DNA of 64,000 nucleotides from Candidatus Levyibacteriota bacterium (lineage in GTDB: Bacteria > Patescibacteriota > Microgenomatia > Levybacterales > GWA1-39-11): NCBI GenBank assembly GCA_039738415.1, contig JBCLLY010000001.1:53621-117620 (forward strand), read 5' to 3'. Numbering within the stretch: the first letter of the stretch is position 1; every line of letters begins with the position of its first letter. The position numbers were made by a program, and so were the translations under genes. Below, piece after piece: positions 14,453-58,380 of the stretch. The notes under the pieces were generated by a model, which did no database searches, was not told the origin of the DNA, and worked only from the letters and a program-made list of their open reading frames with translations.

Positions 14453-15184
14453 TTATATCGCTTTTCCAGTAAATTTTACTTTTTTCGCAAATTTAAAGCT
14501 TCTTTCAATCCCCTCAAGGATGGCTTGTTTTTGCTCAGTAGAATAATCTGTATTTTTATTCACTCTTTCTGAAAGTCCTTGAGAATACTCTTCAAATCCA
14601 TCCTCACCGTTATTCAGGTAATACGCAAAACTTAATCGGGCTAGAGGATGAAAGTGTAGCACAATGCCAGCGTCAGTCCACGTAACTCCCTTACCCTCCA
14701 ACCATTCTTTTATTTCAGTGTTCAATGCTGTTTTTTGAGTGGGCGAAATTTCTGGCTCGGCTGGAAGTAACTCAAAATCCCCTCTTCTTGTTTTTGCAAG
14801 GGCAAAAGCAAAGCCAATTTTATATCCGTCTTGATAATGATTCAACGGACTTTTACCGAGATGTTTGTACTCGTCACTTTTAGGAACATTTAACCTCATG
14901 CCATCGGAAAGTCCTTCGATGCCGGAAGTGCCTTCAACTTTTGGATCTTGCACTACTATATGCATAAAACTTTCGTGAATACCAATCTGGTCAGGTTGGG
15001 TAATTCCAATTTCAGCAAGTCTCTTTACAACCGAATTCATGTAGCCCATGATGTATGCCGTTGCTATTTCCGGTGATGTTATTCCTCTTACTGCATCAAC
15101 CACAATCGGTTTACCCGCCTCTGCTCGGTGCACACCTTGTTCATATCTATGAAGCATTTTTCCAGCAAAATTACCTCTTTCCAT
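14453..15184 (-). CDS. hypothetical protein
   Basis: 243-aa ORF; no family recognised. GC-rich structured element lies in its 5' leader region. Confidence 0.35.
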   Translation of the reverse strand: MERGNFAGKMLHRYEQGVHRAEAGKPIVVDAVRGITSPEIATAYIMGYMNSVVKRLAEIGITQPDQIGIHESFMHIVVQDPKVEGTSGIEGLSDGMRLNVPKSDEYKHLGKSPLNHYQDGYKIGFAFALAKTRRGDFELLPAEPEISPTQKTALNTEIKEWLEGKGVTWTDAGIVLHFHPLARLSFAYYLNNGEDGFEEYSQGLSERVNKNTDYSTEQKQAILEGIERSFKFAKKVKFTGKAI

Positions 15185-15235
15185 GACGGTATTATATAAT
15201 AATTATCAGCTAAAGCATACATTATGTAAATAAAC

Positions 15236-15540
15236 ATTTTTATATGTCATGAGCGGCTGGATGGCTCTGCTGCGCCCGCTCATTCGAGTCTGAGCCTGAG
15301 GGCTTCGGCCGTGAGCTCAGCCGAATCGGCTCTTCCCTCAGAGTCGAAGATCTGCGGAGGGAGTCTGTCGAAGGGTTAGGACTTATTATTTAACGGAACA
15401 AGCGATAACTTTTAAGTAAACCAAGTCGTTTCCAACAGCGCTGTCATCGCGAGGCTACGAAGTAGACGGGGCGGTCTCATGAGATTGCTTTGTTACACTC
15501 CCTCCAAAGGCGGGCACAGCAGGGTAAACTTCTCATCCAT
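15236..15540. ncRNA. GC-rich highly structured element of unknown identity (candidate ncRNA, leader or REP cluster)
   Basis: Nested perfect stems: ATGAGCGG...CCGCTCAT; CTGAG-GGCUUCGGCC-GUGAG-CTCAG with a UUCG tetraloop; AGCCGAAUCGGCU; GAGTCTGAG...CTCAGAGTC. No ORF. RNase P P4 (AGGAAAGUCCGGGC) and the tmRNA tRNA-like end are not found. Confidence 0.3.
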
Positions 15541-15554
15541 TCAGCTTTATATTT

Positions 15555-15585
15555 AAAAAAACCAGACAAAAGTCTGGCTTTTTTA
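15555..15585. terminator. bidirectional intrinsic terminator (ACCAGAC-aaaa-GTCTGGC flanked by A6/T6 runs)
   Basis: aaaaaaaccagacaaaagtctggctttttt. Confidence 0.55.
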
Positions 15586-15589
15586 AATG

Positions 15590-15660
15590 CAGGGCCGGAT
15601 GGAATCGAACCATCTTCAAAAGTTTTGGAGACTTCTATTCTACCGGTAAACTACGGCCCT
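15590..15660 (-). tRNA. tRNA-Trp (anticodon CCA)
   Basis: Minus-strand fold: acceptor AGGGCCG/CGGCCCT, anticodon stem GAAGT/ACTTT with loop CUCCAAA, T-arm GATGG-TTCGATT-CCATC. D-stem is AU/GU-rich. Confidence 0.7.
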
Positions 15661-15791
15661 AAGGTTTTAAAGTACTGCTATACATTATATTTCATCTCTT
15701 ACCTCAAGTAAATCAAAAGTCCATACAATAACACCCGGCAGTTCTACATATCCTACAGAGACCCTACATACCCTATCATTTTTAATCTTGT

Positions 15792-15815
15792 GTATCATAT
15801 ATTAATATATAATAC
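15792..15815. promoter_or_regulatory. 24-bp palindrome GTATCATATATTAATATATAATAC (1 mismatch copy of the recurring operator-like palindrome)
   Basis: Seen at 4 sites (15792, 16254, 60106, 62456). Confidence 0.4.
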
Positions 15816-15855
15816 AATACCCTCAAATACCAAACAACATTCACTAAGCAGTAAA

Positions 15856-16248
15856 TTACGGCTTCATTCTACCCGAGGCAGCGCTAAGAGAATATGAGGC
15901 AAAGTCAACAAGAACTTTTTTTAACTCCTGCATTATTTTATCTTCATTTATTTTATTACGAGCAATTTCAAAACCCCTAGGTCGTAGGTTTAAAAATAGC
16001 TGCATCCTGTTTATGGTTATCTTTGTAACTCCTAGTGCTTCTGAAATCGCAGCATCATCAATCCCTTCTTGCAAGAGTGTTATAATCGCCAAACGCTTGG
16101 CAAGCATTATGCGTTCAGTTTCTGATAGTATTGAAAAGAGAAATTCTTTAGTTTCATTATTATTTAACTTCCCCAGAACCATTGCAAATACTTGTAAAAT
16201 TTCCTTCTTCGTCCTGGGGTCAAGTTCTCGTGGTGATAAATGCGGCAT
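15856..16248 (-). CDS. TrpR-like (YerC/YecD family) DNA-binding protein
   Basis: Helix-turn-helix region ...AKRLAIITLLQEGIDDAAISEALGVTKITINRMQ... typical of the TrpR-related family. Start placed at ATG (MPHLSP...) because the TTG at 16284 would translate the palindrome. Confidence 0.55.
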   Translation of the reverse strand: MPHLSPRELDPRTKKEILQVFAMVLGKLNNNETKEFLFSILSETERIMLAKRLAIITLLQEGIDDAAISEALGVTKITINRMQLFLNLRPRGFEIARNKINEDKIMQELKKVLVDFASYSLSAASGRMKP

Positions 16249-16253
16249 ATTTC

Positions 16254-16275
16254 TATCATATATTAATATATGATA
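16254..16275. promoter_or_regulatory. perfect palindrome TATCATATATTAATATATGATA immediately upstream of the TrpR-like gene start (candidate operator)
   Basis: Perfect 22-bp inverted repeat 6 bp from the ATG. Confidence 0.45.
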
Positions 16276-16737
16276 TATCGTCAAGCTACTTTAAGTAAAC
16301 AATTATGGAAGAATAGCAATGTACTTAAATGTACTTAAATGTGCTTATAAGAGAATCTCTCCTTGTCTTCCATAAGCCATATATAGAACAAGGTCTTTAA
16401 CTTTCTAAAAATTCGCGTTTTAATATTAAAGACGAGGCGAAAACCAAAATAAAAATTAAGCAGTTTATGATTAAATCTACCCCAACCTTTCTATTGGAAA
16501 ATCTTCAACTACTCGTTTGTGAATTATATATCGATATATAATTCACTGATATAAAAGGCTAATTTGAATATTGACACTCTGGTTGAACACTATTTAAAAG
16601 CTAAAAATCTGCTCTACCACCGGCAGCTTTTATGGAATATGAGGCTAATCTCACTAACATGTTTTTTATTTCTCTCATTGCCTGATCCTGATTTATTTTA
16701 GACATAGGCAGTTCAATTTTGCTATGATATAACCTAA

Positions 16738-17406
16738 GTGGAAAAAGTAAAAAAGCATATCAAGGAAAAACAGCTCACTGTCTCAAGGCACTGGAAATCC
16801 CTCCTGATTTTTGGTGTTGTATTTTTCACTATATTTATAATTTTTACCTTCATGGTTAGAGCAAATATGCTAACTGCTTTTGACTTTGATGCAACAGTAA
16901 GACTTCAAGACGATATTCCACTAAGATTTGACTCCTTCTTTTCAACGATTTCCATTCTCGGACGGTTTGAGTACACTTTTGGGGCATTTGTATTTGCTTT
17001 ACTATTTAGAAGACGAATTTTAGGCATAATCCCCTTCTTCTTATTTGGATTCGCGCACGTAATTGAGTTAATCGGAAAAACTATTTTAGAACATCCGGGA
17101 CCACCCCGTATGTTTTTACGCTCTCAATTCGGCGATTTCCCTGGACTTTATGTGTTTACAAATGGGTCTTATCCATCGGGTCATTCTCTACGGATAGTAT
17201 TTCTATCAATCGTATTTACTTACTTTATATTTAATTTTAAAAGACTTCCAAAACATATTAGGTTTGCGCTTTTTGCGCTTATCTTCGCGGTATTTTTTAT
17301 AATGCTCATATCCCGTGTAAGCTTGGGCGAACACTGGACAACCGATGTTATAGGGGGGTCACTTCTGGGTGCTTCTTTTGCCTTCTTAGCGCTAATTTTT
17401 CTTTAA
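16738..17406 (+). CDS. PAP2 family membrane phosphatase
   Basis: Multiple TM helices plus PAP2 motif SYPSGHS and a later SRxxxxxHxxxD-like block. Confidence 0.6.
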   Translation: MEKVKKHIKEKQLTVSRHWKSLLIFGVVFFTIFIIFTFMVRANMLTAFDFDATVRLQDDIPLRFDSFFSTISILGRFEYTFGAFVFALLFRRRILGIIPFFLFGFAHVIELIGKTILEHPGPPRMFLRSQFGDFPGLYVFTNGSYPSGHSLRIVFLSIVFTYFIFNFKRLPKHIRFALFALIFAVFFIMLISRVSLGEHWTTDVIGGSLLGASFAFLALIFL

Positions 17407-17415
17407 AATAGAGGG

Positions 17416-17589
17416 TTACTTCAGCTTATCTTCTTCCTTGTGCGCCGTCTTTTTTTTGCAAGTACGACAGTACTTTACCAATTGAAGCTTTTCAGGTGTA
17501 TTTATCTTATTTCTACTAGTAATGTAATTGCGTCGTTTACAAACTTTACAATCAAGCCCTAATTTTAGTCTTGTACCTTTTTTTGCCAT
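17416..17589 (-). CDS. rpmG: 50S ribosomal protein L33
   Basis: 57-aa translation MAKKGTRLKLGLDCKVCKRRNYITSRNKINTPEKLQLVKYCRTCKKKTAHKEEDKLK with two CxxC pairs. Not in the ORF track because it is under 60 aa. Confidence 0.8.
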   Translation of the reverse strand: MAKKGTRLKLGLDCKVCKRRNYITSRNKINTPEKLQLVKYCRTCKKKTAHKEEDKLK

Positions 17590-17671
17590 GAGGGTAATTA
17601 TAAATTATAAACTTTAAATTAGCAATATATTTGAAGGTATTTAATGTCAGTTAATCCGAGATAATCTTGAA

Positions 17672-17760
17672 TCCTAAATCTTAGGTCTTAAGTCTTAGGT
17701 CTCAAGTCTTAGGTCTTAAGTCTTAGGTCTCAAGTCTCAGGTCTTAAGTCTTAGGTCTTG
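17672..17760. repeat. tandem repeat of about 14-bp unit (AGTCTTAGGTCTYA)
   Basis: cttaggtcttaagtcttaggtctcaagtcttaggtcttaag... Related copy at 43600-43625 in reverse orientation. Confidence 0.8.
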
Positions 17761-17783
17761 AGCATTACACTATTTGAGCCTTC

Positions 17784-17804
17784 GGTCCCGCTTAGCGGGA
17801 CGAC
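17784..17804. repeat. recurrent hairpin GGTCCCGCTTAGCGGGACGAC (copy 1 of at least 7)
   Basis: Other copies at 21897, 29627, 38578 (TTT-loop variant), 38804, 38861 and 56952. Confidence 0.7.
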
Positions 17805-17844
17805 CTAGTTCTTATCCCAGTCGTTTCTTGTCGCGCAAAAAATG

Positions 17845-17916
17845 AGCCCAAAGGGGGAATCGGACCCCCGACCTAGTTCTTACCAAGAACTCGCTCTACC
17901 ACTGAGCCATTTGGGC
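17845..17916 (-). tRNA. tRNA-Thr (anticodon GGT)
   Basis: Cloverleaf: acceptor GCCCAAA, D-arm GCTC-AGTGGTA-GAGC, anticodon stem AGTTC/GAACT with loop UUGGUAA, T-arm GGGGG-TCCGATT-CCCCC. Confidence 0.75.
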
Positions 17917-17924
17917 ATACGCGC

Positions 17925-18045
17925 GACTTAGAACGACGGGATCCCGTACATCTAAGCCAATTCTATCAAATTGGCAAGATGGTACTGGGGCCAAGAACTC
18001 GCTCGGACCCTGTCCGCCTCTGGCGGAACTGAGCCATGCCGGCAA
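17925..18045 (-). pseudogene. degenerate tRNA-Thr-like fragment carrying a CCGCCAGAGGCGG hairpin insertion
   Basis: GCCGGCATGGCTCAGTT + CCGCCAGAGGCGG + ...GAGCGAGTTCTTGG shares D-arm/anticodon-stem sequence with the adjacent tRNA-Thr(GGT) but cannot fold as a tRNA. Confidence 0.4.
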
Positions 18046-18161
18046 CACTAGGCTATTTTATCAATAAGAATTACTAAAAACTAGACCTTGAATATATACT
18101 TTACGGATAGATTGGCTTGAAGGTAAACATATATTCAGGTAAAATATAGTTTGTGCTGCGA

Positions 18162-18231
18162 TGGCGGATCACCGCCCTAGCGGGACAAGGTGGTCAATCG
18201 CATCCCGACGTTACGTCGGGGCGCCCGTTTG
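18162..18231 (+). pseudogene. 5' portion of a degenerate tRNA-Tyr-like gene (acceptor and D-arm intact, anticodon arm replaced by TCCCGACGTTACGTCGGGG); ends in 42-bp direct repeat DR1 (18190-18231)
   Basis: GCTGCGATGGCGGA...GTGGTCAATCGCA...CGCCCGTTTG matches tRNA-Tyr(GTA) at 18485 in acceptor, D-loop and variable-arm segments. Confidence 0.45.
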
Positions 18232-18235
18232 CAAT

Positions 18236-18478
18236 ATGTATTATATTTATATATTAGTAAACTCAAGTGAAAAATATTACGTTGGAAGCACATCGCAGAT
18301 TGGAAAGAGACTAAAAAAACATAACGATGGCGGAGCTATTTGGACAAAAAAATACAGACCTTGGAAATTAATATACAGTGAGGAATTTGAACTAAAATCT
18401 GAAGCTGTAAAAAGAGAAAAACAAATAAAAGCTTATAAAGGCGGAAATGCATTTAAAAAACTTGTAAATAAAAAATAA
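18236..18478 (+). CDS. GIY-YIG nuclease family protein (small, YhbQ-like)
   Basis: MYYIYILVNSSEKYYVGSTSQIGKRLKKHN... has GIY-YIG motifs (YIYIL ... YVGST ... R ... H). Confidence 0.75.
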   Translation: MYYIYILVNSSEKYYVGSTSQIGKRLKKHNDGGAIWTKKYRPWKLIYSEEFELKSEAVKREKQIKAYKGGNAFKKLVNKK

Positions 18479-18484
18479 TCTAGT

Positions 18485-18569
18485 GCTGCGATGGCGGAGT
18501 GGTCAATCGCAACAGACTGTAAATCTGTCGCCCGTTTGGGCTACGTAGGTTCAAATCCTACTCGCAGCA
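18485..18569 (+). tRNA. tRNA-Tyr (anticodon GTA), long variable arm
   Basis: Acceptor GCTGCGA/TCGCAGC, anticodon stem ACAGA/TCTGT with loop CUGUAAA, variable arm CGCCCGTTTGGGCTAC, T-arm GTAGG-TTCAAAT-CCTAC. Confidence 0.85.
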
Positions 18570-18589
18570 CAAATAGTTAAGATTGCTCA

Positions 18590-18660
18590 GTGGTCAATCG
18601 CATCCCGACGTTACGTCGGGGCGCCCGTTTGGGCTACGTTCCGCCAAGGCGGAACTCGCA
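18590..18660 (+). pseudogene. 3' portion of degenerate tRNA-Tyr-like gene (DR2 18590-18631; T-arm replaced by TTCCGCCAAGGCGGAA; acceptor 3' strand CTCGCAGCAC intact)
   Basis: 42-bp near-identical direct repeat of 18190-18231, followed by tRNA-Tyr 3' end. Confidence 0.45.
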
Positions 18661-18841
18661 GCACACATTCAGTATTCGGTATTAAAGCATTAGTATATTA
18701 AAAGATTAAAAAACTTCCCCTCTACCACTTTTTAGAAAGTGACGAACATAAATCCCATAATGATTTCCTAAGCACTGGCAAGAAATCTTTATACTTAGAC
18801 TACAGGATGTTTATAACCTGTGGACAAATTTAACTATGAGT

Positions 18842-19847: not shown

Positions 19848-20258
19848 ATGGATACGAATAGCAACAACATAAAGGGTAAATATATTCCTTTAGATAAGCT
19901 CGAGATTTATCAGCTTTCACGAGAATTATCGTCTCTCGGATGGAAAGTCTATCAAGTACTTGGAGCGAGAGAAAGAAATATCATGGGTGATCAATTCATT
20001 CGTTCAACTGACTCAGTAGGCGCAAATATTGCTGAGGGTTACAGCAGATTTCACTACTTAGACAGAATAAAATTCTGCTATACCTCGCGTGCGTCGCTTA
20101 TGGAAGCCTCAAATCATTGGCTAGAACTCTTAAAGGAAAGGGGATTAGTTTTAAAAGCAGACTATGATTCTTATATCCTGAATTCGAGACTGTTATCCAT
20201 AAAACTAAATAATTATATAAGCTCTCTTTATAAAACAAGGTCCAAGAATTCACCATGA
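19848..20258 (+). CDS. four-helix-bundle protein (23S rRNA intervening-sequence protein family) copy 1
   Basis: GANIAEGYSRFHYLDRIKFCYTSRASLMEASNHWL signature. Confidence 0.75.
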   Translation: MDTNSNNIKGKYIPLDKLEIYQLSRELSSLGWKVYQVLGARERNIMGDQFIRSTDSVGANIAEGYSRFHYLDRIKFCYTSRASLMEASNHWLELLKERGLVLKADYDSYILNSRLLSIKLNNYISSLYKTRSKNSP

Positions 20259-20302
20259 ATATCTATGTATCAATGAATTTCAATAGTATATCTTAATTTA
20301 TC

Positions 20303-20578
20303 ATGGATAATTTTTACAACGTAAATCAGGCAGCCTATATCATGAAGGTCCACCCTCTAACTATCAGGAGGTATATCCGGGAGGGCAAGCTAAAGGCTGT
20401 AAAGCTGGGAGGAAATGTAAGAATAAAAGAACGTGATCTTCAATCATTTATGAAAGATTTTGAGCCGAGACAACAGGCAGACACCTTATCATTTAGAAGA
20501 ATTATTCAGCAGAAAGAATTTACAACCGCAGACCCATTCCTCCGACTTAAGGGGCGTGCGGCTACTGTGGAACTTTAA
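20303..20578 (+). CDS. excisionase-family helix-turn-helix DNA-binding protein
   Basis: VNQAAYIMKVHPLTIRRYIREGKLKAVKLGGNVRIKERDL matches the MerR/Xis-type HTH_17 pattern. Confidence 0.6.
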   Translation: MDNFYNVNQAAYIMKVHPLTIRRYIREGKLKAVKLGGNVRIKERDLQSFMKDFEPRQQADTLSFRRIIQQKEFTTADPFLRLKGRAATVEL

Positions 20579-20579
20579 C

Positions 20580-20667
20580 CATGAATTATGAATAATGAAG
20601 TAAGAAGCATGAAGTAGGAATTATGAAGCATGAAGCAGGAAGCATGAAGTATGAATAATGAAGCAGG
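20580..20667. repeat. heptanucleotide tandem array (CATGAAG/TATGAAT units)
   Basis: It fills the whole intergenic spacer and runs into the first codons of the next gene. Confidence 0.8.
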
Positions 20668-21040
20668 GAAGATAAAAAATTTTACCGATCTAAATGCATG
20701 GAAATATAGCCATAGTTTGGTTTTAGAAATTTATGAAATTACCAAGATTTTTCCTAAAGAAGAGCAATTTGGACTCACCAATCAAATAAGAAGAGCAGTC
20801 GTATCAATAAGTTCAAATATTGCTGAGGGATTTAGCAGAACTTCCTATAAAGATAAGTCTCATTTCTATTCAATGGCGTTAGGTTCTTTAACAGAGGTTC
20901 AAAACCAACTTATGATTGCGCGTGATTTAGGATACTTTTCAGTAGAAAAGTTCAATGAGTTAATAAAGGTCAGCATTACGGTAAGTAAACTTTTAAATGG
21001 ACTGCTTAAAAAATCAAAAACCATGATTCGTGACTCATGA
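20651..21040 (+). CDS. four-helix-bundle protein copy 2
   Basis: NIAEGFSRTSYKDKSHFYSMALGSLTEVQNQL signature. Confidence 0.75.
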   Translation: MNNEAGKIKNFTDLNAWKYSHSLVLEIYEITKIFPKEEQFGLTNQIRRAVVSISSNIAEGFSRTSYKDKSHFYSMALGSLTEVQNQLMIARDLGYFSVEKFNELIKVSITVSKLLNGLLKKSKTMIRDS

Positions 21041-21888: not shown

Positions 21889-21944
21889 GTAGAGCATCCC
21901 GCTAAGCGGGACGGGTCGCGAGTTCGAATCTCGCCTCAGGCTCA
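21889..21944 (+). pseudogene. tRNA-like 3' fragment (D-stem 3' half, CCCGCTAAGCGGG hairpin as anticodon arm with TAA triplet, T-arm GCGAG-TTCGAAT-CTCGC, acceptor 3' strand, no 5' half)
   Basis: Read directly; lacks a 5' acceptor partner. Confidence 0.4.
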
Positions 21945-22082
21945 AATTTTGGCAAGCACGACTTGTACTGGGATAAACAGTCCTTCGACAAGCTCAGGAT
22001 TAGAAACAGGTCTAGGGCTTGCCCCGTATAGCCGCCACCGTGAGGCAAAGACGTAGACTTTGCGAACGGGAAGGTTTATGCG

Positions 22083-22107
22083 GGGTTCGAATCCCTAAGA
22101 CGGCTCA
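22083..22107 (+). repeat. 25-bp direct repeat of the tRNA-Thr(TGT) 3' end (GGGTTCGAATCCCTAAGACGGCTCA), about 200 bp downstream of the gene
   Basis: Identical to 21859-21883. Confidence 0.8.
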
Positions 22108-22374: not shown

Positions 22375-22405
22375 TTGACATGAGGTGGGGGGGGGAGTGT
22401 TTAAT
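22375..22405 (+). promoter_or_regulatory. sigma70-like promoter TTGACA-19bp-TTTAAT with a G9 homopolymer (22387-22395) in the spacer
   Basis: The paralogous promoter at 23641 has G5 and a 17-bp spacer. Confidence 0.5.
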
Positions 22406-22414
22406 ATATATTAT

Positions 22415-23527
22415 ATGAGAGTTTTTCTGCCTAAAAGATCAAAGAAATCAATTTCGGTCATAGGGTTGATCGTAGTATTAATAAACCTTATGGTATTACC
22501 TCTTTTTGTAAGTCAAGTTGATGCCGGAACTTTTACCAGCCGTACAGTAACCATCTCTGACTCACGGGCAGGAAACACCGGCACAACGTATGATTTTGCC
22601 TTTACCGTTGTCGCAACCACAGCAATCAAGCAGTGGAACATTAAGTTTTGTACTGTTACAGGAGCCTACGATGACGCTTGCACAACACCAACCGGAATTG
22701 TAACAACCGGCGCAGCCATCGGATCAGACAACGTAACCGGCTCCGGCAGAACTAACACGTTTGGAGGAAACGGTGTTTTACAAACAGTTGTTACCACTCC
22801 TTCTACCCAAAGCCCGACAGGGGTTACTGTTTCTTACACCGGAATCACAAACCCAACAACAGCCGATACCACCTTCTTTGCCCGTATCATTACATATTCA
22901 GATCCGGGAACAACAGAGATTGACAGTGGGACAGTTGCCGCTGCCATTTTAACCTCCACCTCAATTGCCGTAACTGCCGCCATTGACTCAGCGCTTACTT
23001 TTACTGTGGCAGCTGTCAATAGCGGAGGAACCGTCAATGGAGCAACCACCAATATTACCACCACTGCTATCCTCATTCCTTTTGGGACGCTTTCTTCCGG
23101 TTCAACCAAAATTGCCGCTCATGACTTGACAGTGGAAACAAATGCTTCTGGCGGATACACGACCACTGTCAAGGCAACCGCTACTCCACCTTTAGTTAAT
23201 GGCTCAAATAATATTGATGTCTTTACCGGTGCTAATTCAAATCCAACAATTTGGAGTTCACCGGGTGGTACTGCCAACTCTGTTAATACCGGATTCTTTG
23301 GGTATACCACCAATGATGCGACTCTAGGCACAGGCACAGCCGACAGATTTACAGATACGGGTAATGAGTGGGCCGGAACTACCACCTCTCCTTTAGAGGT
23401 TGCCTTTTCCGCAACCGGTGCTTCTTCAGAGACAACAAGGGTAGGCTGGCAAGCTGAGGTTAACAGCATCCAAGCCGCAGGATCATATACCGGAACTGTT
23501 ATTTTAACGACTACGCCAACGTATTAA
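22415..23527 (+). CDS. Thr/Gly-rich secreted surface protein, tandem paralog A (signal peptide; C-terminal ...GSYTGTVILTTTPTY)
   Basis: Start set at ATG MRVFLPKRSKK. The track start GTG 22385 would translate the G tract. About 95% identical to paralog B. Confidence 0.6.
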   Translation: MRVFLPKRSKKSISVIGLIVVLINLMVLPLFVSQVDAGTFTSRTVTISDSRAGNTGTTYDFAFTVVATTAIKQWNIKFCTVTGAYDDACTTPTGIVTTGAAIGSDNVTGSGRTNTFGGNGVLQTVVTTPSTQSPTGVTVSYTGITNPTTADTTFFARIITYSDPGTTEIDSGTVAAAILTSTSIAVTAAIDSALTFTVAAVNSGGTVNGATTNITTTAILIPFGTLSSGSTKIAAHDLTVETNASGGYTTTVKATATPPLVNGSNNIDVFTGANSNPTIWSSPGGTANSVNTGFFGYTTNDATLGTGTADRFTDTGNEWAGTTTSPLEVAFSATGASSETTRVGWQAEVNSIQAAGSYTGTVILTTTPTY

Positions 23528-23640: not shown

Positions 23641-23669
23641 TTGACATGGAGTGAGGGGGAGTGTTTAAT
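23641..23669 (+). promoter_or_regulatory. sigma70-like promoter TTGACA-17bp-TTTAAT with a G5 tract
   Basis: Duplicated with gene B; the same architecture is seen at 49382-49410. Confidence 0.5.
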
Positions 23670-23678
23670 ATATACTAT

Positions 23679-24791
23679 ATGAGAGTTTTTCTGCCTAAAA
23701 GATCAAAGAAATCAATTTTGGCCATAGGGTTGATGGTAGTATTAATAAACCTTATGGTATTACCTCTTTTTGTAGGTAAAGCCAATGCCGACACCCTCAC
23801 AACCCGCAATCTAACCATCTCTGACTCACGGGCAGGAAACACCGGCACAACGTATGATTTTGCCTTTACCGTTGTCGCAACCACAGGAATCAAGCAGTGG
23901 AATATTAAGTTCTGTACTGCTGCGGGAGCCTACGCTGACGCTTGCACAACACCAACCGGAATTGTAACAACCGGCGCAGCCATCGGATCAGACAACGTAA
24001 CCGGCTCCGGCAGAACTAACACGTTTGGAGGAAACGGTGTTTTACAAACAGTTGTTACCACTCCTTCTACCCAAAGCCCGACAGAGGTTACTGTTTCTTA
24101 CACCGGAATCACAAACCCAACAACAACGGATACCACCTTCTTTGCCCGTATCATTACATATTCAGATCCGGGAACAACAGAGATTGACAGTGGGACAGTT
24201 GCCGCTGCCATTCTCACCACCACCTCAATAGCCGTAACTGCCGCCGTTGACCCAGCGCTTACCTTTACTGTAGCTGCTGTCAATTCCGGAACCGTCAATG
24301 GAGCAACCATCAATGTGACGACTTCAACTGCCGTCCTTATTCCTTTTGGGACGCTTTCTTCCGGTTCAACCAAAATTGCCGCTCATGACTTGACAGTGGA
24401 AACAAATGCTTCTGGCGGATACACGACTACTGTCAAGGCAACCGCTACTCCACCTTTAGTTGATGGCTCAAATAATATTGATGTCTTTACCGGTGCTAAT
24501 TCAAATCCAACAATTTGGAGTTCACCGGGTGGTACTGCCAACTCTGTTAATACCGGATTCTTTGGGTATACCACCAATGATGCGACTCTAGGCACAGGCA
24601 CAGCCGACAGATTTACAGATACGGGTAATGAGTGGGCCGGAACTACCACCTCTCCTTTAGAGGTTGCCTTTTCCGCAACCGGTGTTTCTTCAGAGATAAC
24701 AAGGGTAGGCTGGCAGGCTGAGGTCAACAGCATCCAAGCCCCAGGATCATATACCGGAACTGTTATTTTAACGACTACGCCAACATATTAA
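23679..24791 (+). CDS. Thr/Gly-rich secreted surface protein, tandem paralog B
   Basis: 370 aa; tandem duplication unit about 1266 bp. Confidence 0.6.
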   Translation: MRVFLPKRSKKSILAIGLMVVLINLMVLPLFVGKANADTLTTRNLTISDSRAGNTGTTYDFAFTVVATTGIKQWNIKFCTAAGAYADACTTPTGIVTTGAAIGSDNVTGSGRTNTFGGNGVLQTVVTTPSTQSPTEVTVSYTGITNPTTTDTTFFARIITYSDPGTTEIDSGTVAAAILTTTSIAVTAAVDPALTFTVAAVNSGTVNGATINVTTSTAVLIPFGTLSSGSTKIAAHDLTVETNASGGYTTTVKATATPPLVDGSNNIDVFTGANSNPTIWSSPGGTANSVNTGFFGYTTNDATLGTGTADRFTDTGNEWAGTTTSPLEVAFSATGVSSEITRVGWQAEVNSIQAPGSYTGTVILTTTPTY

Positions 24792-27799: not shown

Positions 27800-27960
27800 G
27801 AGATTGCCACGCTCCATTTCATTCCGCTCGCAATGACAGTAAGTGCGAAAGTTGCCTTTCATAGTCGTCATTGCGATCCGCCAGCTGGCGGATCCTCGCA
27901 ATGACGGGTAAACTCATGATCGCAATGACGAGAGAAGGGAATTGTTTTTTAAAGTCTTGA
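27800..27960. repeat. REP-like cluster (GTCATTGCGA-TCCGCCAGCTGGCGGA-TCCTCGCAATGAC; CGCAATGAC four times)
   Basis: Long perfect inverted repeats. Confidence 0.7.
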
Positions 27961-29570: not shown

Positions 29571-30506
29571 TTATACCTTAGTATAGTATATTGACCGTCC
29601 TTTACCATAAGCAAAAAGAAGTCCCAATCCCGCTAAGCGGGATAAATCCCTTGAAGCAGTAACCTGGGCGACCTTAAACATTGTTTGGACTTGATGGTTG
29701 GTTATCTTGACCTCCGGAGATTCAAGGTAGCGTAATATCTCTCTTTGTCTTTCATTAAGCTGTAGGAGTTTAGTCGGCAGGGAAGAAGAAAACCGCCGTC
29801 TGACAATTTTATCCTCCATCTTGACTAAATGAGTCAAAACTACTTGGGTAAAATCTTCTAAAAAGGGGGTTAAAGCAGACTCGCTCTGCAAAAGTAAGCT
29901 TTCACTGTGGGCGAATAAGTCTTCCAATACTAAGAAACCTCTCATATCATAACCATGCTTGTATAAAAATAGATAAGAGGTGAGAATAGCAACACGTTCG
30001 TTACCTTGGCGGAATACCGGATCTTTGAGGAGTTTGATAAAGGCTAAACCGGATTGAATTACTGGTATTTCTTGACCAGCTTGGAGGTATTTGAGAAATT
30101 CTTCCAACTGTACAATAAAGTTTTCAAAATTGAGAACCCTTCCCAGAGTTGGTGCACAGGCTATATTGTAAAGCGCTAGTATCTCCTCAGATGTCACCTT
30201 CGACTTTGAAGCAATCCAGGTATGATGCAGAAAATCCAGGGCTTTTTTATAATTTATTAGTTCCTGCTCCTTAGTAGTGGTTTTTTTGGGATTATAAGTG
30301 GAAAGCAGATTAGCAATCTCTGTTTTGGTGATTGGCTCCTGTGTGGTTGTTGGTAATGAGTGAAGTCTATCTATCATTGTTTCCCATCTAAAGACAAGCT
30401 CGTCTTTTGGTGAGATAGGAGTTACAAGTAACTTCGTTCTCAGTAGGTCAATATCATCAATGGTTTTTTTTAACCTTGGTGAGAAACTATAACTTAAATT
30501 TAACAT
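29571..30506 (-). CDS. Fic-like protein with degenerate active-site motif (DPVFRQGNER instead of HPFx[DE]GNGR) and C-terminal winged-helix
   Basis: By-eye motif alignment. C-terminal ...VTASRDLSRLAGLGLLFAYGKGRSIYY is wHTH-like. Contains a CCCGCTAAGCGGG hairpin in frame. Confidence 0.3.
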   Translation of the reverse strand: MLNLSYSFSPRLKKTIDDIDLLRTKLLVTPISPKDELVFRWETMIDRLHSLPTTTQEPITKTEIANLLSTYNPKKTTTKEQELINYKKALDFLHHTWIASKSKVTSEEILALYNIACAPTLGRVLNFENFIVQLEEFLKYLQAGQEIPVIQSGLAFIKLLKDPVFRQGNERVAILTSYLFLYKHGYDMRGFLVLEDLFAHSESLLLQSESALTPFLEDFTQVVLTHLVKMEDKIVRRRFSSSLPTKLLQLNERQREILRYLESPEVKITNHQVQTMFKVAQVTASRDLSRLAGLGLLFAYGKGRSIYYTKV

Positions 30507-38640: not shown

Positions 38641-38803
38641 TCCACCCCCCTAAGCACAGCAAATGCACTTATTCGAGTGAATTTATGGAAATATTCTACC
38701 ACAAAAGAGGCAAATAGTCAGATATACCTCCGAAGTGTATCAGGTAGGACACATCGGGATAAATTGAAATTGTAAAATTAAATTGAGCCAAAAGGTCCCG
38801 CTA

Positions 38804-38881
38804 AGCGGGACGACTTACTCTTTATCCCAGTACAAATCGTGCTTACCCATGTGAGCCAACGGTCCCGCTAAGCGGGACGAC
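38804..38881. repeat. two tandem copies of GGTCCCGCTAAGCGGGACGACTT(A/G)CTCTTTA
   Basis: 38804-38824 and 38861-38881. Confidence 0.7.
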
Positions 38882-38909
38882 TTGCTCTTTACCTGCCCGC
38901 CAATGCTTG

Positions 38910-46570: not shown

Positions 46571-46703
46571 ATGATGAAGACTGAATGATGAATCATGAAT
46601 AATGGATCATGAATCATGAATACTGAATGATGAATCATGAATAATGAATCATGAATACTGAATAATGGATACTCTATACTGAATACTGGATACTGAAATG
46701 AAA
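46571..46703. repeat. heptamer tandem array (TGAATCA/TGAATAA/TGAATAC units)
   Basis: Same family as the arrays at 20580, 21508, 48974, 52066 and 58255. Confidence 0.8.
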
Positions 46704-48973: not shown

Positions 48974-49165
48974 AGTATTCAGTATTCAGTATTCAGTATT
49001 CAGTATTCAGTATTTAGTATTCAGTATCCATGATTCATTATTCATGATTCATTATTCATTATTCAGTCTTCAGTATTCATGATTCATTATTCATGATTCA
49101 TGATTCATTATTCAGTATTCATGATTCATTATTCATGATTCAGTCTTCACCATCCACCATCTACA
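48974..49165. repeat. heptamer tandem array (ATTCAGT/ATTCATG/ATTCATT), about 27 units
   Basis: Read directly. Confidence 0.85.
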
Positions 49166-52065: not shown

Positions 52066-52318
52066 AGTATTCAGTATTCAGTATTCAGTATTCAGTATTC
52101 ATGATTCAGTATTCATGATTCATTATTCAGTCTTAAGTATTCAGTATTCAGTATTCAGTCATCAGTCTTCAGTCTTCAGTATTCATGATTCATGATTCAT
52201 GATTCAGTCTTCAGTATTCATGATTCATGATTCATGATTCAGTCTTCAGTATTCATGATTCATTATTCATGATTCATTATTCATTATTCATGATTCATTA
52301 TTCAGTATTGAGTCTTAA
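52066..52318. repeat. heptamer tandem array, about 36 units
   Basis: Read directly. Confidence 0.85.
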
Positions 52319-58254: not shown

Positions 58255-58380
58255 AGATACTGAATACTGGATACTGAATAATGAATAATGAATAATGAAT
58301 AATGGATACTGAATAATGAATAATGAATACTGAATACTGAATACTGAATACTCTATACTGAATAATGAATACTAGATACT
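58255..58380. repeat. heptamer tandem array (ATACTGA/ATAATGA units)
   Basis: Read directly. Confidence 0.85.

Follow-up and report, generated by a model that had tools for sequence, protein, structure and literature searches.

We studied a small nuclease gene and its accompanying tRNA genes in a 64,000-nucleotide (nt) stretch of a Candidatus Levyibacteriota genome (contig JBCLLY010000001.1; the whole stretch is referred to here as the window, and positions are counted from its first letter). We consider it somewhat better than an even bet, with a probability of roughly 0.55, that the tRNA-Tyr(GTA) locus of this window belongs to a large family of cassettes that are selfish and homing-like and reside in bacterial tRNA genes. 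The cassette combines an open reading frame (ORF) for a GIY-YIG protein of about 80 amino acids (aa) of the Slx1/UPF0213 type, an abutting functional tRNA on the same strand, and partial copies of that tRNA in which palindromes have been substituted.

The locus, all of whose features lie on the + strand, is framed by two direct repeats (18190-18231 and 18590-18631) that are identical at 42 of 42 nt, for which a chance match is negligible. Between them are the 80-aa ORF (18236..18478) and, 6 nt after its stop codon, an intact tRNA-Tyr(GTA), which was placed at 18485..18569 by Rfam (RF00005, 64 bits) and at 18485-18570 by ARAGORN. Direct reading revealed that the repeats belong to a split tRNA-Tyr look-alike, here called the outer copy, which encloses the ORF and the intact tRNA. 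Four tRNA-Tyr segments were kept exactly in the outer copy, at 100% identity to the intact gene: the acceptor 5' strand with the D-stem 5' strand (18155-18168), the D loop with the D-stem 3' strand (18190-18202 and 18590-18602), the variable arm (18622-18639) and the acceptor 3' strand (18654-18663). Compared with the intact tRNA, the 5' pseudo-tRNA-Tyr fragment (18155..18231) runs from the acceptor 5' strand through to the 5' half of the variable arm. It carries a GC-rich 21-nt insert, TCACCGCCCTAGCGGGACAAG, in the D loop (18169..18189), followed by the first 42-nt repeat copy (18190..18231, D loop to variable arm), in which the palindrome TCCCGACGTTACGTCGGGG (18203-18221) stands in place of the anticodon arm. 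The 3' pseudo-tRNA-Tyr fragment (18590..18663) is separated from the intact tRNA by a 20-nt spacer, CAAATAGTTAAGATTGCTCA (18570..18589), and comprises the second repeat copy, the full variable arm, the palindrome TCCGCCAAGGCGGA (18640-18653) substituted for the T arm, and the acceptor 3' strand with the discriminator. Within the window, the palindrome TCCCGACGTTACGTCGGGG is confined to these two repeat copies (0.03 occurrences expected).

The repeats, the ORF, the intact tRNA-Tyr and the replacement of the anticodon and T arms were thus all as described in the original prediction, which had been made from the letters of the window. Its view of the outer copy as the degenerate remnant of a disrupted tRNA-Tyr gene did not hold, because the retained segments were 100% identical to the intact gene and the differences were precise exchanges of an arm for a palindrome. 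The same exchanges at tRNA-Thr loci of the window that have no ORF, described below, also count against a remnant. The inner tRNA-Tyr may have been brought in with the cassette or may be the resident gene; both fit the sequences, in which no position open to comparison distinguishes the two copies.

The anatomy also refuted two conventional origins, to which we give virtually no credence: scars of the attachment (att) sites of an integrase island, and a group I intron with a homing endonuclease gene in tRNA-Tyr. Island integration does leave partial 3' tRNA copies beside tRNA genes, but there was no integrase between the repeats, where the 400 bp hold only the 80-aa ORF and the tRNA, and 5' fragments occur besides 3' fragments. 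The cassette shares with tRNA-targeting integrative elements and archaeal split tRNA genes a tRNA landing site, partial duplication and preservation of a functional copy; it differs from them in having no integrase, a length of about 0.4 kb, fragments on both sides and palindrome-substituted arms. With regard to an intron, no match to RF00028 or any other group I intron was found at E ≤ 1 in the window, and splicing could not yield a tRNA because the outer "exons" have no anticodon loop and no T loop. Rfam scans of the window and 12 loci, by gathering threshold and by E-value, identified tRNAs only, apart from sub-threshold chance matches and a signal recognition particle (SRP) RNA at one locus (L002). 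This SRP RNA gene (L002 2651-2749, - strand) lies just upstream of a tRNA-Ser cassette and is unrelated to it.

Checks with tRNA models separated the two copies, as the inner copy was detected by ARAGORN and Rfam and the outer copy by neither. ARAGORN found 0 tRNA genes in the joined outer copy, and a window-wide Rfam scan (E ≤ 1) gave no tRNA match over either of its halves in place. When joined in silico (112 nt), the outer copy folded into a five-arm cloverleaf (-60.1 kcal/mol) with loops of 4-5 nt, having a hairpin with a 5-nt loop at the anticodon position and neither an anticodon loop nor a T loop. A functional second tRNA or suppressor was rejected as an identity for the outer copy, since it was not detected as a tRNA and has a 5-nt loop at the anticodon position.

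A second, independent assembly from the same organism, GCA_039731645.1 (L001), had 100% identity to the window over 3.5 kb (15161-18665), so the tRNA-Tyr cassette is not an assembly artifact. L001 departs from the window at 18665/18666 (L001 3505/3506), exactly where the outer 3' pseudo-tRNA fragment ends, and past this point it has an apparent further spacer, AATAGTTAA, and the start of a fragment (GTGGTC...) before the contig ends. This divergence into a further spacer and fragment suggested copy-number variation in the population, and the difference between the two assemblies at 18665 is probably heterogeneity in array length.

Analyses of the 80-aa protein indicated that it belongs to the GIY-YIG superfamily by its motifs, catalytic residues and predicted fold (PF01541, E = 6.5e-18). 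Residues Y5, Y15, G17, R25, H29 and E61 were invariant in 25 homologues, and the AlphaFold2 model (pLDDT 89.7) had its secondary structure elements in the order E-E-H-E-H-H. The annotated form of the protein has 105 aa and starts at 18161, reading through the pseudo-tRNA; alignments of the 25 homologues start at the Met of the 80-aa form, and the annotated start is probably mis-called, with the true protein having 80 aa. An exact look-up of the 80-aa protein returned no match, the database entry being the 105-aa form. Gene calls in the family often begin 20-50 codons early, through a pseudo-tRNA fragment (P0001, P0002, P0007 and others), and apparent protein lengths are therefore inflated. The ORF is under purifying selection, with dN/dS of 0.07-0.24 in 8 close pairs.

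The nuclease is a member of the Slx1/UPF0213 clade, of a type that consists of the catalytic domain only. The best profile matches were to 1zg2 (1.2e-13), 1ywl (1.9e-9) and SLX1 (5e-8 to 6e-5), whereas I-TevI matched only at 2e-3, and Foldseek on the AlphaFold2 model gave the same ranking, with UPF0213 and Slx1 proteins nearest (TM 0.65-0.71, root-mean-square deviation 2.2 Å). The UPF0213 proteins of COG2827 (BH0048, 1zg2; EF2693, 1ywl) and Slx1 were therefore the closest known proteins by profile (E = 1e-13 to 6e-5) and fold, and share its catalytic core. Eukaryotic Slx1 differs in having a C-terminal zinc-finger domain, an Slx4 partner and branched DNA as its substrate; the window protein has the catalytic domain without the zinc finger. 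There was no sequence beyond the catalytic domain and no DNA-binding domain, and family members have 80-130 aa. Nothing in NCBIfam scored above threshold for the 80-aa protein, TIGR01453 reaching 21 bits against a cut-off of 56. A 2006 survey of the superfamily assigned bacterial proteins of this kind to the Slx1 cluster and did not mention adjacency to tRNA genes (PMC1564403).

The family is large. When 1.84 billion cluster representatives were searched with a profile, 8,828 clusters (50% identity) matched at E ≤ 1e-10, nearly all with proteins of 80-130 aa, and a homologue search likewise gave chiefly proteins of 80-120 aa. A tblastn search of 50,697 phage records gave 23 weak matches, none of them a Seg protein, and IMG/VR viral contigs gave one weak match to the nuclease family. 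Identity as a homologue of the phage endonuclease SegB was rejected, with no match in the phage collections. A defense system was also rejected, as PADLOC gave weak partial matches only.

A scan with one genome per species found more than 520 relatives, from which 80 loci were kept, in Patescibacteria, Bacteroidota, Omnitrophota, Marinimicrobia, Nitrospiraceae, gammaproteobacterial metagenome-assembled genomes (MAGs) and others. The arrangement of a GIY-YIG gene with a tRNA, for which a search elsewhere had been proposed with the original prediction, recurs widely: among 93 homologous ORFs in about 80 genomes, chiefly Patescibacteria and Bacteroidota, 72 adjoin a tRNA called by ARAGORN, on the same strand in every case. 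The gap between ORF and tRNA was mostly below 15 nt, or the two overlapped; the tRNA starts a few nt past the ORF stop (or overlaps it), or else ends 2-60 nt before the ATG. The adjoining tRNAs were most commonly of the Ser and Pro types, then Tyr and Gln, with Glu and others also present. The isotype was common to nearest protein neighbors in 52 of 69 cases, compared to 24% by chance. Cross-phylum inferences rest on MAGs, some of which are possibly mis-binned; the tRNA-Ser genes of a "Lentisphaeria" contig (L074) are identical to those of a Marinimicrobia locus (L055), which suggested MAG mis-binning and limits claims of transfer between phyla.

Most of these ORF-tRNA pairs are flanked by partial copies of the same tRNA. 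At L002, a 5' fragment of tRNA-Ser(GGA) with two GC hairpins is followed by the ORF and an intact tRNA-Ser, and L003-L012 have a 5' tRNA-Gln(CTG) fragment with a D-loop hairpin, the ORF and an intact tRNA-Gln. The Bacteroidota loci L036, L041 and L045 contain tandem arrays of tRNA-Pro, ORF and a tRNA-Pro copy with its D arm replaced, while L059, L072, L074 and L013 have an intact tRNA, the ORF and then a 3' fragment that bears a palindrome. Upstream arrays of a leader and a hairpin-bearing 5' fragment were found at L041, L067 and L070, and arrays are typically closed by a truncated next copy of the ORF. The downstream element often supplies the stop codon of the ORF, as at L070 (~2244-2258), where TAA lies in the palindrome loop, and L036 (~2237-2246), where TAG comes from tRNA positions 8-10; the ORF is therefore tightly fused to tRNA-like sequence. 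Nucleotide similarity between loci was limited to the 3' end of the ORF and the tRNA, and the ends of the element could not be defined from paralogues within one genome, as the copies were too diverged. The junction of 5' fragment and ORF varies among loci (L002, L003, L032, L034, L077, L080 and the window), and consequently there is no fixed homing site.

These comparisons bear on an RNA-level interpretation, in which co-transcribed hairpin RNAs on a tRNA scaffold would act as RNase P/Z processing signals, as mRNA stabilizers, or as an antidote or decoy of the type III kind. Prokaryotic Slx1-like domains have been found fused to a TrmH-like tRNA Gm18 methyltransferase and to COG4123 (PMC1564403), which we counted in its favor. 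All parts of the cassette lie on one strand, tightly packed behind a predicted tRNA promoter, and the hairpin exchanges keep the cloverleaf of the joined outer copy. COG4123 is now assigned to tRNA m6A37 methylation. The upstream arrays of L041, L067 and L070 resemble toxI-type repeats; the window has no such upstream array. However, most fragments are incomplete, with one acceptor strand missing or the fragment interrupted by the ORF, and a tRNA-like scaffold is impossible for these. The diverged copies at L029 do not maintain acceptor pairing, no Rfam family matches the region, and GIY-YIG enzymes are DNA nucleases. With regard to type III toxin-antitoxin systems, the fold of the protein is that of a DNA nuclease and PADLOC matches were weak and partial. 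We regard an RNA-level system as quite unlikely.

The replaced arms have a sequence in common. The signature palindrome, CCCGCC-N3-5-GGCGGG, has stems of 6-8 bp and loops of mostly 3 nt, and close variants of it exist. Of the 93 ORF copies, 51 have it no more than 200 nt upstream and 57 no more than 260 nt downstream, compared to a background of 0.02 per 200 nt. Mapping of the flanks on the intact neighboring tRNA indicated that the palindromes replace whole arms. In the 31 D-arm replacements the flanks follow the tRNA up to positions 9-11 and then again from 24-28, and replacements of the anticodon arm, T arm and T loop were analogous. The exchange of an arm for a palindrome is a hallmark of the family across phyla and tRNA types. 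A bias of G-U over A-C at stem ends (41:19), scored to tell RNA constraint from DNA constraint, was set aside because replaced D arms have a conserved G10-U25 context that confounds it.

Palindromes were also abundant in the window away from the nuclease gene. Three of the four other tRNA genes carry palindrome-bearing partial copies with no ORF, the tRNA-Trp being clean. The intact tRNA-Thr(GGT) (17844..17916, - strand; ARAGORN and Rfam) lies between two relic fragments on the same strand: 74 nt upstream is a 5' fragment (17991..18043) whose D loop contains TCCGCCAGAGGCGGA and which breaks off within the anticodon, after nt 35, and on the other side is a 3' fragment (17775..17821) with TCCCGCTAAGCGGGA for the T arm. 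Directly 3' of tRNA-Thr(TGT), on the + strand, a region with relic 3' fragments extends over 21889-22106; its first part (21889..21944) consists of the D-stem 3' strand and TCCCGCTAAGCGGGA for the anticodon arm, followed by a T arm and an acceptor that are both unlike their counterparts in the resident tRNA. Two tandem relic 3' fragments, each with TCCCGCTTAGCGGGA for the T arm, lie downstream of tRNA-Thr(CGT) (38784..38893, - strand). Local alignment scores of the tRNA-Thr relics were 46-63 among themselves compared to 13-28 with the resident tRNAs, and since they are more alike mutually, they represent a repeat family and not products of local decay. There are exactly three instances of the motif ACTGGGATAA in the window, all of them on the 3' side of a tRNA-Thr. 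No further GIY-YIG copies or ORF remnants were found in the window, including the stretch between the tRNA-Thr(GGT) fragments.

Two palindrome types, TCCGCC-N2-6-GGCGGA (8 in the window, 0.01 expected) and TCCCGC-N3-GCGGGA (7, 0 expected), were also overrepresented, and some of them are solo in intergenic DNA. Solo GC palindromes of the TCCGCCAGCTGGCGGA and TCCCGCTAAGCGGGA types lie at 27877, 28032, 43510, 49179, 52650 and 58151, and at 29628, 38579 and 56953. They are far more numerous than chance predicts, have no conserved flanks and are often beside AT-rich tandem repeats. They form a REP-like family (repetitive extragenic palindromes), possibly with a link to the nuclease.

An element centered on the palindrome, comparable to REPs and their RAYT enzymes, could account for part of these data: the palindromes would spread by entering or replacing stem-loops, for example the arms of tRNA genes, and the ORF would encode the cognate enzyme, autonomous or domesticated, that cuts the cruciform or hairpin. 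Consistent with this, the palindrome accompanies the ORF with a conserved sequence whatever the phylum or tRNA type, its stems are conserved and its loops variable, and the nearest structural relatives of the nuclease are structure-specific nucleases. The centers of even-length palindromes were perfect in 15 cases, with a 2-nt loop in 16 and a 4-nt loop in 7, against an expected 1:3:12. The solo palindromes of the window likewise speak for such an element, but outside the cassette palindromes were rare, with 22 loose matches in 221 kb of sequence flanking the other 80 loci. It would also leave unexplained the constant adjacency of a genuine tRNA of the same type and the tight abutment of the ORF. 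We know of no GIY-YIG enzyme that transposes DNA. REP/RAYT systems resemble the cassette in that short GC-rich palindromes flank a nuclease gene and are also intergenic in this genome; RAYTs, however, are HUH/Y1 enzymes, and REPs are not tied to tRNAs and do not replace arms of RNA genes. Overall, we judge this interpretation to be unlikely.

The conservation of the palindrome sequence and its tendency to perfect palindromy suggest that the nuclease recognizes palindromes, as a DNA structure or as RNA. We tentatively raise the possibility, which we would bet against, that the minimal Slx1-like nuclease has the conserved palindrome as its functional partner. The palindrome would serve either as a cruciform or hairpin DNA address by which an 80-aa enzyme could locate tRNA genes and rewrite them one arm at a time, or as an RNA on a tRNA scaffold that binds the enzyme and controls it.

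The orthologous tRNA-Tyr site is polymorphic for presence, absence and decay of the cassette. An exact search of metagenome contigs with a 38-mer of the intact tRNA-Tyr retrieved seven loci. Three of them (L093, L094 and L099) are clean empty alleles, with an uninterrupted tRNA-Tyr, no ORF and no fragments, as the original prediction had led one to look for in relatives. In these alleles the tRNA-Tyr follows a TTGAAG-N17-TAAAAT box after 8-9 nt, and the same box lies 8-9 nt before tRNA-Tyr in L096 and L098. The corresponding sequence of the window (18117..18145, + strand) resembles a sigma-70 promoter, TTGAAG-17-TAAAAT, with 9/12 in a consensus scan, and precedes the 5' pseudo-tRNA fragment; judged by its sequence, this putative promoter would drive tRNA-Tyr directly in the empty alleles. 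Downstream, L094 and L099 have a motif, ACTACAGGAT...GTGGATAA, in common with window positions 18799-18840. Synteny on both sides was found for L095, also an empty allele, which has the tRNA-Thr(GGT) upstream and the ACTACAGGAT...GTGGATAA motif downstream as in the window. This locus has no ORF and neither the tRNA-Tyr nor the tRNA-Thr 5' fragment, the latter being the relic at 17991..18043; there is only an 18-nt scar, GTGGGCAATCGCATCCCG. Decayed alleles were represented by L098, which has a 5' fragment with the D-loop insert TCACCGCCCTAGCGGGACAAG but another loop (TCACCGCCAAAGCGGGACAAG) and an ORF reduced to its C-terminal end, and by L096, with an ORF remnant of ~80 nt. Diverged 3' partial tRNA copies without palindromes were found in L096, L097 and L098, where they are preceded by spacers homologous to CAAATAGTTAAGATTGCTCA.

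These palindrome-free copies, and the presence of GC hairpins in intergenic DNA of the same genome, might be taken to indicate that tRNA genes had simply been duplicated in tandem and had decayed beside an unrelated housekeeping UPF0213 gene, with the hairpins acting as generic terminators. Findings already in hand largely contradict this, and we consider it improbable. Neutral decay does not make a pattern of whole-arm exchanges alongside retained segments of 100% identity, the same palindrome and ORF-tRNA abutment occur in unrelated phyla, the ORF is patchy among near-identical tRNA-Tyr loci, and no T runs come after the hairpins.

We favor the selfish, homing-like cassette because the outcomes resemble those of SegB: ORFs that abut tRNAs, tandem partial tRNAs, truncated ORFs, and polymorphism for gain, loss and decay. 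The tRNA clusters of T4 and T6 phages encode SegB, a free-standing homing endonuclease of the GIY-YIG type (PMC2330249; PMC13096335). The phage T6 enzyme cuts inside tRNA genes at a motif that matches the T loop and drives recombination-dependent tandem amplification of tRNA-Tyr and truncated segB; segB homologues are enriched beside tRNAs, and truncation of the C-terminal part of SegB abolishes its toxicity (PMC13096335). The likeness to the cassette thus extends to a GIY-YIG gene among tRNA genes, tandem copies of tRNA-Tyr and truncated nuclease, and selfish inheritance of the homing type. SegB differs in being a phage protein with a C-terminal part, whereas the window protein is a chromosomal 80-aa catalytic domain of the Slx1/UPF0213 clade, and palindrome-substituted pseudo-tRNAs have not been described for SegB. 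Enzymes of the I-TevI type, from group I introns, have the catalytic fold and selfish spread into conserved genes in common with the cassette; the similarity is weak (1mk0, E = 2e-3; TIGR01453, 21 bits), and the cassette has no linker, DNA-binding domain, intron or fixed insertion site. By analogy, the cassette would work like SegB while standing outside the Seg/I-TevI group. What survives of the homing-type cassette of the original prediction is a mobile or selfish unit with a functional tRNA maintained at its side. Its nuclease, which has no DNA-binding domain, is not an enzyme of the I-TevI/Seg type, and there is no fixed homing site, given the locus-specific junctions of 5' fragment and ORF.

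We propose that such a cassette would operate as follows; anatomy, recurrence, polymorphism and purifying selection are observed, whereas the cutting specificity, the route of repair and the shared transcript are inferences. It would be transcribed from the promoter of the tRNA itself, and the nuclease would break tRNA genes, either inside them or at their edges. Recombinational repair templated by a copy that has the cassette, with the conserved tRNA sequence as homology, would copy the ORF into empty alleles and would also yield tandem partial tRNA duplications, as with phage SegB. Such homology-directed repair would be anchored on the tRNA, with the other junction variable, which would fit the differing junctions of 5' fragment and ORF. 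The essential tRNA would always be retained intact next to the ORF. In the weakest step of the scheme, the palindrome-substituted copies would have no tRNA function, would probably not be recuttable, and would break up the homology by which the ORF could otherwise be deleted. Cassettes would finally decay to relics with no ORF, as exemplified by the three tRNA-Thr loci of the window.

Several points weigh against this proposal. Sequence-specific homing is hard to picture for an 80-aa protein because it has no DNA-binding domain; cleavage of tRNA genes by the nuclease is a prediction for this family, and the intact neighboring tRNA would stay a target. Paralogues at different tRNAs of one genome are highly diverged, with no sign of recent jumps, and the near absence of the family from the viral contigs and phage genomes searched leaves no evident vehicle for horizontal spread. 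The empty alleles could be secondary losses and not naive sites, and the cross-phylum nearest neighbors may in part reflect MAG mis-binning, as with the identical tRNAs of L074 and L055. Lastly, immunity or anti-recombination alone does not explain the conservation of one palindrome across phyla.

If the proposal is correct, it would provide the first biological context for the large bacterial UPF0213/Slx1-like family (8,828 clusters), which is functionally uncharacterized, and would extend the SegB principle from phages to bacterial chromosomes, notably the reduced genomes of Patescibacteria. It would also explain a class of tRNA-like debris and of spurious N-terminal ORF extensions, both of which may confuse tRNA and gene annotation. 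No mechanism has been described for so precise an exchange of tRNA arms for a single conserved palindrome, which is directly testable with a very small protein; should the palindrome be the partner of the nuclease, the cassettes would represent a novel class of mobile element, guided by structure and remodeling tRNA genes in thousands of bacterial lineages. The full-text literature, in a search with most subscription journals outside its coverage, contained no mini GIY-YIG genes beside tRNA genes and no palindrome-substituted pseudo-tRNAs. A 2026 survey of tRNA genes and introns in Patescibacteria does not mention the arrangement (PMC13011429).

Other features were observed in the window. A 14-nt tandem repeat unit, TCTTAGGTCTTAAG, lies beside tRNA-Thr(GGT) at 17651-17767, and 7-nt AT-rich intergenic units (TGATTCA/TTATTCA) are repeated at ~46574-46697, 48976-49120, 52066-52310 and 58257-58371. 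At 19848-21040, two genes for four-helix-bundle proteins of the 23S-rRNA-intervening-sequence type (PF05635) flank a small excisionase-like HTH_17 gene; the second PF05635 gene also had a weak bAvd-like match, and this could be a mobile-element or retroelement-accessory context. Two nearly identical genes in tandem (22385-23527 and 23661-24791) encode Thr/Gly-rich proteins of ~380 aa with signal peptides and look like a recent tandem duplication.

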